From Holothuria leucospilota (taxonomy: Eukaryota): a stretch of DNA of 64,000 bases. The notes beneath the pieces are model-generated. The model had not been told where the DNA came from. It ran no database searches and saw only the letters and a program-made list of their open reading frames with translations. The translations under genes and the position numbers were made by a program. This document shows positions 26,057-32,476 of this stretch, piece by piece. Within the stretch, counting starts at the first letter, position 1. Each line of letters begins with the position of its first letter. Where the stretch lies: positions 6,720,493 to 6,784,492 of the forward strand of contig CM055976.1 of assembly GCA_029531755.1 (NCBI GenBank). Direction: 5' to 3'.

Positions 26057-26093
26057 GCCACCTGATGAAGGGTTTAAACCCGAAACGTCGTGG
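26057..26093 (+). ncRNA. minimal type-I hammerhead ribozyme (PLE-type) in the 3' region of the truncated PLE2 copy
   Basis: Helix I 5' strand ccac, then CUGAUGA (26062-68). Helix II is the GGGUUUAAACCC hairpin. GAAAC (26082-86) is followed by the palindromic dimerizing helix III ACGU and GUC|, with cleavage after 26089. Helix I 3' strand gugg pairs with ccac. Confidence 0.7.
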
Positions 26094-26174
26094 AATTTTT
26101 CACAAACTTTTAGCACTATTTACTACTTTATTTTTACCTACCTACTTCATAAGTGCTACGCAGTACTTTGACCC

Positions 26175-26320
26175 TATATATATATATATATATATATGTA
26201 TATATATATATATATATACATATATATATATATATATATATATATATATATATATATATATATATATATATATATATATATATATATATATATATATATA
26301 TATATATATATATATATATA
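26175..26320. repeat. (TA)n microsatellite of about 70 units with a few interruptions
   Basis: Read directly. It separates the PLE2 fragment from the PLE1 inverted pair. Confidence 0.95.
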
Positions 26321-26383
26321 GAAAGTATAAGCAAAAATAATAGCAAGAAACACAACTTTTGCTGCTCCACTATAATAAGTATA

Positions 26384-26423
26384 ATTCAATACGTTTCGGT
26401 CATTCGACCTTCCTCAGTTGAAC
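26384..26423 (-). ncRNA. hammerhead ribozyme of PLE1, minus-strand copy
   Basis: It is the reverse complement of the 30137-30176 motif (uugaac CUGAGGA a GGUCgaauGACC GAAAC GUA| uugaau). Confidence 0.65.
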
Positions 26424-26461
26424 AAACACAGTACACTGGTGATAAACACACAACAGAGGGC

Positions 26462-30098: not shown

Positions 30099-30136
30099 GC
30101 CCTCTGTTGTGTGTTTATCACCAGTGTACTGTGTTT

Positions 30137-30176
30137 GTTCAACTGAGGAAGGTCGAATGACCGAAACGTATTGAAT
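30137..30176 (+). ncRNA. minimal type-I hammerhead ribozyme of PLE1, with CUGAGGA and a GUA cleavage triplet
   Basis: Helix I 5' strand guucaa, then CUGAGGA (30143-49). Helix II is GGUC-gaau-GACC. GAAAC (30163-67) is followed by the palindromic ACGU and A17, with cleavage after 30170. Helix I 3' strand uugaau gives six base pairs including one G-U. Confidence 0.65.
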
Positions 30177-30362
30177 TATACTTATTATAGTGGAGCAGCA
30201 AAAGTTGTGTTTCTTGCTATTATTTTTGCTTATACTTTCTATATTATCATGAGAGAAACACCCTGGCATCCTATTTGGATCCTTTTGTTGGGAGTACATT
30301 GTTTGGGTATGTTGAACTTTCTTATTCTCGTTATATATATATATATATATATATATATATAT

Positions 30363-32294
30363 ATTAATGCCGATTTAGAACGTCTCCTTCCTCCCAAAGT
30401 AACTCCCTTTCGTAACATTTCTTTGGACGAGCAGAAGGCCATTCTGTCCCTCAAGAAGAACAAGAATTTGATTATTAAGCCTGCTGACAAGGGCGGTGCC
30501 ACTGTTGTTTGGCGTCGAGATCTTTATGTTTCTGAAGCTGAGAAACAACTCTCAGACCAAACAGCATACACCGAACTGCCGATAGACCCCACTTCTGAAA
30601 TCCAAACCTTGGTCAAGAAAACCTTAGCTACCCTTGTAAGTCAAAAACATCTTCCTGAATCGGCTAAAGCCCTTCTGCACCCTTGCCCACAAATCTCCAA
30701 TTTCTATCTACTGCCCAAAATTCACAAGGCCAATAATCCTGGTCGTCCCATTGTGTCTTCCCACAGCTGCCCCACGGTTCTGATTTCACAGTACGTAGAT
30801 TCTGTACTTTCCCCATTAGTTTCAACCCTACCTTCGTTTATCCAGGATACTCCTCACTTCCTTAGGTTAATTCAAAATTTTGAGTTTCCTGAGAATCCCA
30901 GTGAACGTACTTTATTCACCATGGATGTCAGCAGCCTCTATACTTCAATCCCCCATCACGCTGCTTTAGCAGCCATACGCCATTACCTTGATCAACGCCA
31001 GGACCCTAGCATCCCTACCACCACCTTTCTTCGCTTAACTGAACTAGTCCTGACACAAAATTGCTTTCAGTTCAATGGTCGTTTTTTCCGCCAAATTAAA
31101 GGAGTAGCTATGGGCACTAAACTGGGACCTTCTGTGGCCTGCCTCACCATGGGCCACTTTGAGGAGCAGTTGTTCTCACGATACACCGGGATCAAGCCCA
31201 TACTTTATAAAAGGTACATTGACGATATTGTTGGGGTCGCAGTGGGTCCTCGAAACGATTTGGAAAAGTTCATTAACTTTGCTGAAACGTTCTGCCCGTT
31301 TTTGAAATTCACTCACTGTATTTCCAACTCCTCAGTAGTGTTTTTAGACACGGAACTATCCATCTCCGACCGTCAAATCAAGTCCAATCTCCACTTTAAG
31401 CCTACTGACTCTCACAACTACCTCATGTACCCTTCCAACCACCCCAGATCTTGTACCAATTCGATTCCTTTCTCACAACTTTTACGGGCCAGACGGATTT
31501 GTTCCGACGACCAGGATTTCGCTAAAGTTTCCAAACAGATTATTTCTTTCTTTGAACAACGCCAGTATCCACAAAGAGTGCTCTCTAATGCCCTGAAACG
31601 CATACAAGGAATTGATAGAGCCTCTGCCCTTGCCCCCAAAACTGACCATACACCCACCAGACGTATCCCGTTGGTCCTATCCTTTCACCCATCTGTAACC
31701 CCCATTGTACGTGCCATTTACAGGAATGTAGAGACCCTCCGTCATGACCCATCCACCCGTGACCATTTCCCTGATCCCCCCATCACGGCATTCAGAATTG
31801 AAAAGAACATATCTAAGCACTTGGTCCGTGCCTCTCAACCTCAAGCAGTAGTGCCTGACACCCCAGGAACTTTTCCTTGCAACCGTGGGAGATGCAATAC
31901 TTGCCCGGTGGTCAGTTATGACATAAACCTTTCCATTGTAGGTCCCAACAACAACCGGTTTAACGTTCATCAGCATTTTACCTGTACTTCAGCCAATGTT
32001 GTTTACGTTCTCGTATGTAAACGCTGTAATATACTGTACGTGGGAGAAACAAAACGTCGTCTTGCTGACCGAGTCACCGAGCACCTGAGATCAATCAAAC
32101 AGAACCTCCCAGGGTTCCCGGTAGCCACCCACTTCAATCCCCCGTCAACATGCTCGATCCGTGACTTGATGGTTTCGGCGGCCATCTCGTGTCGAGGTTC
32201 CGATCATGACCGCCTAGCTGCCGAAAACCGCCTAATCATGAAACTTGGAACCCTGTCCCCACATGGTCTGAACGTTAGACTTGAACTGTTATAA
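30363..32294 (+). CDS. PLE2 reverse transcriptase plus GIY-YIG endonuclease ORF, about 643 aa after the (TA)n, with no Met start in the element
   Basis: The ORF-track ORF is trimmed to the part downstream of (TA)n. The region from KPADKGG onward is homologous to the Penelope/Poseidon RT, as recognised from memory. Confidence 0.7.
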   Translation: MNADLERLLPPKVTPFRNISLDEQKAILSLKKNKNLIIKPADKGGATVVWRRDLYVSEAEKQLSDQTAYTELPIDPTSEIQTLVKKTLATLVSQKHLPESAKALLHPCPQISNFYLLPKIHKANNPGRPIVSSHSCPTVLISQYVDSVLSPLVSTLPSFIQDTPHFLRLIQNFEFPENPSERTLFTMDVSSLYTSIPHHAALAAIRHYLDQRQDPSIPTTTFLRLTELVLTQNCFQFNGRFFRQIKGVAMGTKLGPSVACLTMGHFEEQLFSRYTGIKPILYKRYIDDIVGVAVGPRNDLEKFINFAETFCPFLKFTHCISNSSVVFLDTELSISDRQIKSNLHFKPTDSHNYLMYPSNHPRSCTNSIPFSQLLRARRICSDDQDFAKVSKQIISFFEQRQYPQRVLSNALKRIQGIDRASALAPKTDHTPTRRIPLVLSFHPSVTPIVRAIYRNVETLRHDPSTRDHFPDPPITAFRIEKNISKHLVRASQPQAVVPDTPGTFPCNRGRCNTCPVVSYDINLSIVGPNNNRFNVHQHFTCTSANVVYVLVCKRCNILYVGETKRRLADRVTEHLRSIKQNLPGFPVATHFNPPSTCSIRDLMVSAAISCRGSDHDRLAAENRLIMKLGTLSPHGLNVRLELL

Positions 32295-32439
32295 CGCAGC
32301 AATTCCTGCATTATTTTGACTTGTGGTAACCACTTAACACTGTCTGTTTTCCTAGCCGAGGTTTACCGTGCCCAATTTTATTGTGTATTTTTTTTTTTAA
32401 ATTGTACGTTTGGCCGTGTCAACGATCAGTTGCATTTTT

Positions 32440-32476
32440 GCCACCTGATGAAGGGTTTAAACCCGAAACGTCGTGG
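32440..32476 (+). ncRNA. minimal type-I hammerhead ribozyme in the PLE2 3' UTR
   Basis: ccac CUGAUGA (32445-51) ag GGGUUUAAACCC GAAAC (32465-69) GUC| gugg, identical to the 26057-26093 copy. Confidence 0.7.

Follow-up and report, generated by a model that had tools for sequence, protein, structure and literature searches.

Two Penelope-like elements (PLEs), here named PLE1 and PLE2, carry compact hammerhead motifs in a 64,000-nucleotide (nt) stretch of Holothuria leucospilota DNA (assembly GCA_029531755.1, contig CM055976.1, positions 6,720,493 to 6,784,492 of the forward strand), and this whole stretch is referred to below as the window. We consider it very likely that these are genuine minimal hammerhead ribozymes (min-HHR) of type I belonging to two Neptune-like PLEs, with catalysis presumed from the literature. 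Judged by sequence, their identity matches that of the dimer-dependent min-HHR published for PLEs (Cervera and De la Peña 2014, PMC4209133). Their sequence, position, orientation and conservation were observed directly; helices I and II covary, and the palindrome at helix III is kept through turnover of its sequence. The four predicted motifs are the following, with a slash at the expected cleavage site.

26058 to 26093, plus strand: type-I minimal hammerhead, PLE2 copy A, ccac CUGAUGA A GGGUuuaaACCC GAA ACGU C/gugg
26384 to 26423, minus strand: type-I minimal hammerhead, PLE1 minus-strand copy, guucaa CUGAGGA A GGUCgaauGACC GAA ACGU A/uugaau
30137 to 30176, plus strand: type-I minimal hammerhead, PLE1 plus-strand copy, same sequence as the minus-strand copy
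32441 to 32476, plus strand: type-I minimal hammerhead, PLE2 copy B, same sequence as copy A

Cleavage is predicted after C26089 in PLE2 copy A, between 26390 and 26389 in the minus-strand PLE1 copy, after A30170 in the plus-strand PLE1 copy and after C32472 in PLE2 copy B; the three plus-strand positions had been placed correctly by the initial annotation of this DNA. As that annotation had also proposed, the motifs lie in the 3' regions of their PLEs in sense orientation, starting 45 nt (PLE1, plus-strand copy) and about 150 nt (PLE2 copy B) downstream of the stop codons of the open reading frames (ORFs). The pattern CTGANGA-N8-30-GAAACGTH matched exactly four times in the 64 kb, at 26062-26089 (+), 32445-32472 (+), 26390-26417 (-) and 30143-30170 (+), and did not match in any of 100 dinucleotide-preserving shuffles, so that the presence of the four motifs at the coordinates first given for them was borne out by direct reading and by the pattern scan. 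A looser scan of both strands of the whole 64-kb window returned no further compact hammerhead motifs. The four sites represent two independent sequences, each of them duplicated together with its element (a 99.8% identical inverted repeat for PLE1 and a 95% identical direct repeat for PLE2); the count of four ribozymes therefore holds for sites and has to be halved for independent sequences.

In both PLE2 copies the full motif reads ccac CUGAUGA A GGGU-UUAA-ACCC GAAAC GUC/gugg, and in both PLE1 copies it reads guucaa CUGAGGA A GGUC-GAAU-GACC GAAAC GUA/uugaau. The hammerhead core (C3 U4 G5 A6 N7 G8 A9 / G12 A13 A14 / A15.1, U16.1 / H17) is complete in either family, as had been claimed, appearing as CUGAUGA...GAA-A...U-C in PLE2 and as CUGAGGA...GAA-A...U-A in PLE1, with one extra A after A9 in each. 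This unpaired A lies between A9 and G10.1 at the 5' side of helix II; it was missing from the motif sequences as first written, which were one base short between CUGANGA and helix II, although the coordinates quoted with them do include it. Helix I forms across the cleavage site, in PLE2 with 4 bp and in PLE1 with 6 bp, of which the outermost is G.U, in agreement with the 4-6 bp annotated initially, and helix II consists of 4 bp and a tetraloop in both families. At helix III both families have a palindromic ACGU and no loop 3, and because of the missing loop no helix III can form in cis and pairing is possible only between two copies. The description of the motifs as canonical is thus right for the core but imprecise with regard to the extra A and the lack of a cis helix III.

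The motif recurs beside homologous ORFs in other PLE loci. Relatives were fetched by protein homology and not by RNA motif, six through exact-protein look-ups and 80 by scanning metagenomes with an alignment of PLE proteins. A strict descriptor, calling for the core with or without a 1-nt bulge, a palindromic helix III, any base except G at position 17 and no fewer than 3 bp in each of helices I and II, was applied to 85 loci and gave 30 matches in ORF sense and one in antisense, compared with 0.05 in shuffles, and the bulge, which the descriptor leaves optional, is an A in all 30. The matches are located 117-781 nt downstream or 957-1440 nt upstream of the ORF, and two loci, L035 and L034, contain two copies each (3.42 kb apart in L035), consistent with tandem PLE units. 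Identity to PLE1 reaches 52% or more in 20 loci, of which 13 have the motif, and the seven that lack it have at most 601 nt of downstream and 1,002 nt of upstream flank. In L001 and L002 no hammerhead was found within 500 nt of the stop codon, the motif lying further off or in an upstream or inverted copy. When the 3' untranslated regions (UTRs) were aligned, the hammerhead was the only block invariant between PLE1-type and PLE2-type elements.

A relaxed descriptor, which asked for CUGANGA and GAAA around a hairpin of 4 bp or more, with the bulge optional and other constraints free, was applied to 86 loci and yielded 39 unique motifs, 34 of them on the sense strand and the rest in inverted copies. 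The bulged-A class, which is defined by that A, accounts for 29 of the 39. G10.1-C11.1 is present in 28 of these 29 and replaced by G.U in one, and helix III is palindromic in 26, in the form of ACGU, AUAU, AAUU, AGCU or AAGCUU, with ACGU in 17 of the 26. Position 17 is C in 12 bulged-A motifs, U in eight, A in six and G in none. The GUA cleavage triplet that had been singled out in PLE1 is indeed present and recurs in L018 (67% identical to PLE1), and the closest PLE1 relative, L086 (68%), combines the same helix II with GUC; since relatives have C, U or A at position 17, GUA is ordinary variation within the NUH rule. Taken together, a helix III that stays palindromic through five sequences, a position 17 that avoids G and a constant bulged A support the dimer model, and the comparative data provide an independently sampled confirmation of all three features, the bulged A being constant within the lineage.

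Pairing was then scored in an alignment of 19 ACGU-class sequences, which included the two window types as well as copies with decayed helix I; helix I pairing was not a selection criterion. Here 81% of cells were paired, against 55% in column shuffles, and the covariation score was 0.608, against 0.165 in shuffles, with 0 of 500 shuffles reaching 0.608. When the partner registers were slid by 1-3 columns, the score was 0.06-0.17. Double compensatory changes were seen in nine of ten helix pairs of helices I and II, helix II was paired to 98.6%, and the pair G10.1-C11.1 was GC in 19 of 19 sequences. The initial argument that compensatory covariation speaks for selection on the ribozyme was weak, based as it was on two sequences; in the 19 sequences it holds, and the motif is under selection. 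In addition, a covariance model (R1) was built from 12 sequences, none of them from the window, and on the window it found exactly the four motif sites at E about 1e-13, the next best match reaching 14 bits. The PLE2 sites scored 54.5 bits (E 1.1e-13) and the PLE1 sites 53.4 bits (E 2.4e-13 for the minus-strand copy).

Other hammerhead-like motifs were noticed during the survey of relatives. Distant relatives (L045-L085, 30-34% identical to PLE1) have a different conserved motif, CUGAUGA-GCC(N4-6)GGC-GAAACCGUG, without a bulged A, of which L075 3900-4000 and L063 3934-4034 are examples. It is accompanied by an upstream covarying hairpin and then a second CCGUG, and has a G at the expected H17 position; tested as type I, II and III, it gave no consistent register for helix I or helix III. 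Separately, a coral-like contig (L001, 5162-5235) contains a palindromic pair of CUGAUGA-GUGG(gcga)CCAC-GAAAC-AGG motifs unrelated to the local PLE ORF; they lack the bulged A and resemble halves of canonical hammerheads, and L032 and L038 contain similar ones.

The elements that host the motifs occupy a contiguous part of the window, arranged as follows.

25412 to 26174, plus strand: PLE2 copy A, 5'-truncated to about 0.76 kb of its 3' part, with a (TA)n tract on each side, from repeat comparison
26175 to 26320, no strand: (TA)73 microsatellite between the PLE2 copy A tail and the PLE1 minus-strand copy, from Tandem Repeats Finder
26320 to 28485, minus strand: PLE1 minus-strand copy, GIY-YIG E 3.7e-5, inverted repeat
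28486 to 30247, plus strand: PLE1 plus-strand copy, 5'-truncated, with one frameshift, GIY-YIG E 4.6e-6, ORFs 28606-29577 and 29496-30098
30366 to 32523, plus strand: PLE2 copy B, 5'-truncated, with (TA)n on both sides, RVT_1 E 4e-8 and GIY-YIG

The two PLE1 copies form a head-to-head inverted repeat of 1,764 nt (26312-28075 / 28486-30247). The minus-strand ORF (26462-28477, 671 aa) is intact, with just 8 nt between its ATG and the head-to-head junction. The plus-strand arm has an 88-nt 3' extension (30248-30335) followed by (TA)n (30336-30365), and the minus-strand arm is without the extension. The PLE2 copies are direct repeats (25412-26248 / 31790-32615), and the ORF of copy B (30366-32294, 642 aa) has no start codon; a homologue 90% identical to PLE2 (P0121) has 730 aa, so that copy B is about 88 N-terminal residues shorter. 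The PLE2 protein is 94-99% identical to H. leucospilota proteins, which by itself would make that sea cucumber or a close relative the probable host, and the best PLE1 homologues, 62-68% identical, come from marine metagenomes and coral assemblies.

The assignment of the host elements to the PLEs was upheld by Pfam matches to GIY-YIG in both ORFs and to RVT_1 in PLE2, and by 30% identity between the PLE1 and PLE2 proteins over 638 aa spanning the reverse transcriptase (RT) region. The GIY-YIG scores were above the curated cut-off of 22.6 bits in PLE1 (24.4 and 27.3 bits) and under it in PLE2 (19.9 bits), and RVT_1 was not detected in PLE1 in the Pfam search of the ORFs. By inspection, the PLE2 translation contains ADKGG, a C-NRGR-C-NT-C linker and VCKRC...EH...THF, and the PLE1 translation includes TCSKC...NHKSH; both ORFs combine DKG and a CX3-4CxxC linker with an endonuclease that has CxxC...H...H. 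A DKG motif, a CX2-5CxxC linker and a CCHH-type endonuclease motif are features of Neptune/Nematis-type PLEs (Craig et al., PMC8557442), and by these sequence features both elements qualify as PLEs with a C-terminal endonuclease (EN+) and a Neptune/Nematis-type linker. Membership in the Hydra clade was also considered, because (TA)n targeting and small size are common to Hydra-clade PLEs and the window elements. The signature of that clade is a change of DKG to DKT, absence of CCHH and a CxCX5C linker (PMC8557442, section 11), and the candidate was rejected since DKG, the CX3-4CxxC linker and CCHH are all kept here.

Every PLE boundary adjoins (TA)n (25299-25413, 26175-26320, 30336-30365, 32522-32615 and 32967-33034), and (TA)n is the insertion target of the elements. 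Inverted 5'-truncated partners, one-sided tails and microsatellite targets have been described for PLEs (PMC8557442). PLE2 copy A ends in a 34-nt 3' tail (26141-26174) that copy B lacks and two relatives, L003 and L005, have; this tail and the PLE1 extension at 30248-30335 match the one-ended tails drawn for PLEs in the same paper. At 32617-32760, inside (TA)n, lies a miniature head-to-head PLE1 dimer, composed of the reverse complement of the PLE1 tail and 88-nt extension (matching 30216-30335) followed by about 30 nt of plus-strand PLE1 tail. This near-perfect hairpin is mis-scored by Rfam as mir-4536 and resembles the 4-kb inverted PLE1 pair after extreme 5' truncation. The surrounding region is rich in transposable elements: elsewhere in the window there are a Transposase_21 (tnp2) ORF (12715-14859), two blocks of a 65-nt satellite (35112-36900), and, at 56390-59385, a retroviral-type integrase ORF preceded by a SCAN-domain ORF (a fragment of a long terminal repeat retrotransposon).

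A number of findings speak against the identification of the motifs as min-HHRs or against their being active here. In the Rfam search of the whole window, cmscan reported no hammerhead family (RF00163, RF00008, RF02275-RF02277) at gathering score, and at E<=10 there was likewise no hammerhead family on 25500-33000 or on 71-76 nt slices around the motifs. Rfam hammerhead models expect a helix III hairpin. We attribute the miss to the absence of this hairpin, and for that reason do not accept it as a refutation: the initial annotation had proposed a cmsearch comparison in which scores below threshold would count against it, and scores below threshold are what was obtained, but for this class we judge the outcome uninformative. 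Current Rfam models miss the whole min-HHR class, with no match at E<=10 where a custom model of 12 sequences gives 53-54 bits, and genome pipelines based on Rfam will consequently leave such ribozymes unannotated, which is the chief practical lesson of the analysis. The matches that Rfam did return at E<=10 were only microRNA false positives driven by microsatellites; the (TA)n tracts gave weak mir-297, mir-1277 and pestivirus-UTR matches, which are low-complexity artefacts. The R1 model has its own weakness in that L003 and L005, which are part of it, are close relatives of PLE2, and the PLE1 score is therefore the more independent of the two.

The folding results are also unfavorable in part. 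The minimum free energy (MFE) folds of the monomers contain helices I and II, but the thermodynamic support is weak, with z-scores of -1.4 and -2.3, and folding of the antisense strand is about as good. A nested double-hammerhead dimer, in which the ACGU tetrads of two copies pair as helix III, is energetically feasible at -16.5 and -19.5 kcal/mol, but it is not the MFE dimer (-21.4 and -36.6 kcal/mol). In helix I, G.U outnumbers A.C by five to two, which is no proof of a selected strand. We regard the thermodynamic prediction as neutral, and the case, as far as sequence can make it, rests on the asymmetric conserved core, its orientation and the covariation. PLE2 helix II (GGGTTTAAACCC; also written GGGUUUAAACCC; 26070-26081 and 32453-32464) is itself a perfect 12-nt palindrome, for which a 12-bp intermolecular duplex competing with the double hammerhead is predicted (the MFE dimer at -36.6 kcal/mol); a loop substitution breaks this palindrome in L003 and L005.

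With respect to activity, the adverse points are that PLE min-HHRs are reported to have low activity in vitro even as dimers (PMC4209133), that Naiad PLEs proliferate without hammerheads and the ribozyme may be dispensable (PMC8557442), and that all copies in the window are 5'-truncated, with no intact tandem pair of the same family and no pair of pseudo-long terminal repeats (pLTRs). This last point makes it probable that the window ribozymes are passengers, carried by copies that are dead or non-autonomous. The strongest alternative goes further in the same direction and holds that the motifs are genuine hammerheads by descent but inert at this locus, sitting in truncated, dead insertions that are never co-transcribed and remaining intact only because they are young; we give it a chance that falls a little short of even. 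It draws on the state of each copy: PLE2 copy B is without a start codon and the N-terminal residues present in P0121, PLE2 copy A is just a 0.76-kb fragment, the plus-strand PLE1 copy is truncated and frameshifted, and the minus-strand copy has only its 8 nt upstream of the ATG, compared with about 1 kb between upstream hammerhead and ORF in relatives. The near identity of the PLE1 inverted arms, in turn, implies a recent origin. On the other hand, the minus-strand PLE1 ORF is intact, and three plus-strand ACGU hammerheads lie within 6.4 kb, where a read-through transcript could unite partners. This alternative addresses activity here and leaves the identity of the motif untouched.

A different possibility is that the structure is a conserved 3'-UTR element selected for a role other than cleavage, for example as a handle by which the PLE RT recognizes its template in target-primed reverse transcription, the core being kept for protein binding. 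The motif does lie 50-77 nt from the 3' end of the element, where RTs of the non-LTR type (LTR, long terminal repeat) recognize their templates, and the cleavage reported for PLE min-HHR in vitro is very low (PMC4209133). We nevertheless find it unlikely, because the catalytic core shows no variation at any nucleotide among relatives with protein identities of 30-90%, G never occurs at position 17 and helix III is palindromic through its five sequences, a set of constraints specific to hammerhead catalysis and dimerization, and because fungal and plant PLEs bear fully active canonical hammerheads at the same position. Less credible still, to the point of being highly improbable, is a signal at the DNA level, such as a palindrome for the GIY-YIG endonuclease or for second-strand priming. 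The perfect DNA palindromes of PLE2 helix II and of the helix III ACGT would suit it, as would the similar folding of both strands; however, CTGANGA-A and GAAA are asymmetric and run in ORF sense in 34 of the 39 unique motifs, with the remainder in inverted copies, the sequences of helices I and II change freely while their pairing is kept, and the real insertion target is (TA)n and not the motif. Chance matches to a short degenerate pattern, multiplied by duplication, could appeal to there being just two independent sequences and no Rfam match, but are already refuted by the empty shuffles, by the same architecture in sense beside homologous ORFs in unrelated samples, with covariation, and by the E of about 1e-13 under a foreign-built model.

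If the motifs act as the min-HHRs that we take them to be, then catalysis, the requirement for a dimer and a role in RNA processing would follow by analogy with the literature, in which a dimer model and the processing of PLE RNA to unit length have been proposed (PMC4209133, PMC6765202). The motif would be transcribed within the sense RNA of the element, just 3' of the RT-endonuclease ORF. The monomer is expected to form an open helix I of 4-6 bp and helix II with the bulged A at its 5' end, with no helix III hairpin. The A15.1-C-G-U16.1 palindrome would then pair with its counterpart in a second hammerhead to produce a double hammerhead with an extended helix III, for which two copies would be needed, either on one transcript (from tandem or nested PLEs) or on two transcripts. 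Each active site would cleave 3' of C17 or A17, and cleavage may cut PLE transcripts that are tandem or result from read-through down to unit length, perhaps followed by circularization, ahead of reverse transcription. The low rates in vitro have been taken to suggest cofactors (PMC4209133, PMC6765202).

The three plus-strand hammerheads within 6.4 kb (PLE2 at 26062, PLE1 at 30143 and PLE2 at 32445) all have ACGU at helix III. The shared palindrome, the shared bulged A and nesting in the same (TA)n tracts would allow a PLE1/PLE2 heterodimer, and it is conceivable, if doubtful, that PLE1 and PLE2 hammerheads complement each other across families on chimeric read-through transcripts. If this were true, PLEs that are unrelated or truncated could activate one another's ribozymes by nesting in a common microsatellite target, and such complementation would explain the dominance of ACGU among relatives.

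Compared with known systems, the window motifs are closest to the min-HHR of metazoan PLEs (PMC4209133). Both are of type-I topology and lie in sense orientation in the flanking or 3' region of a PLE. Both have the CUGANGA...GAAA core, with one nucleotide left unpaired between A9 and G10.1, and the pair G10.1-C11.1; the 15.1-16.1 segment is palindromic (ACGU) and without loop 3, which implies that they act as dimers, helix I is short, with no defined loop 1, and the families are rich in compensatory changes. Every sequence-level hallmark of PLE min-HHR is found in the window motifs: context, bulge, G10.1-C11.1, palindromic 15.2-16.2, open helix I and covarying families. They differ in that helix II has 4 bp and a tetraloop instead of the 7-8 bp of the Schistosoma min-HHR families, and in that the copies lie in 5'-truncated insertions instead of the classical pLTR pair. 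PLE hammerheads in general are minimal versions without helix III and tertiary contacts (PMC6155905, PMC4209133), and min-HHR have also been reported by Lünse, Weinberg and Breaker 2017, as cited in PMC6765202. No published description of a holothurian min-HHR was found.

Canonical type-I hammerheads (RF00163; schistosome Sm-alpha and newt satellite 2) have the same core, the type-I strand order and a short helix III, and their cleavage is dimer-dependent (Forster et al. 1988, as summarized in PMC4209133 and PMC6765202). Their helix III of 1-2 bp carries a small loop, the loop of helix I is closed and loops 1 and 2 make contacts, and the window motifs are without all of these. The unpaired A has a counterpart in the plus-strand hammerhead of chrysanthemum chlorotic mottle viroid (CChMVd), in which an extra A10 between A9 and G10.1 is compatible with catalysis (De la Peña and Flores 2001, as summarized in PMC4209133 and PMC6155905); that ribozyme is a viroid type-III hammerhead with a stable helix III and comes from an unrelated context. 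HDV-like ribozymes (HDV, hepatitis delta virus) of R2 and other non-LTR retrotransposons offer a functional analogy, as self-cleaving RNAs that free retrotransposon RNA from a co-transcript (PMC6765202), but they have another fold, reside at the 5' end of the element and act as monomers. Animal non-LTR retrozymes (PMC7229834; bioRxiv 10.64898/2026.07.22.740005) bear type-I hammerheads in tandem repeats, give circular RNA and have a proposed origin from PLE pLTRs; they are non-coding tandem arrays, whereas the PLE copies seen here are coding, and the window yielded no tandem array of hammerheads. Minimal hammerheads have been described in all available PLE sequences (PMC6155905) and in the canonical EN+ clades (PMC8557442). 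Against this background, the window motifs are the ordinary ribozyme already documented for PLEs and add little conceptually; their value lies in annotation, as they mark where the 3' region of a PLE copy lies and which way the copy runs, even if it is heavily truncated.

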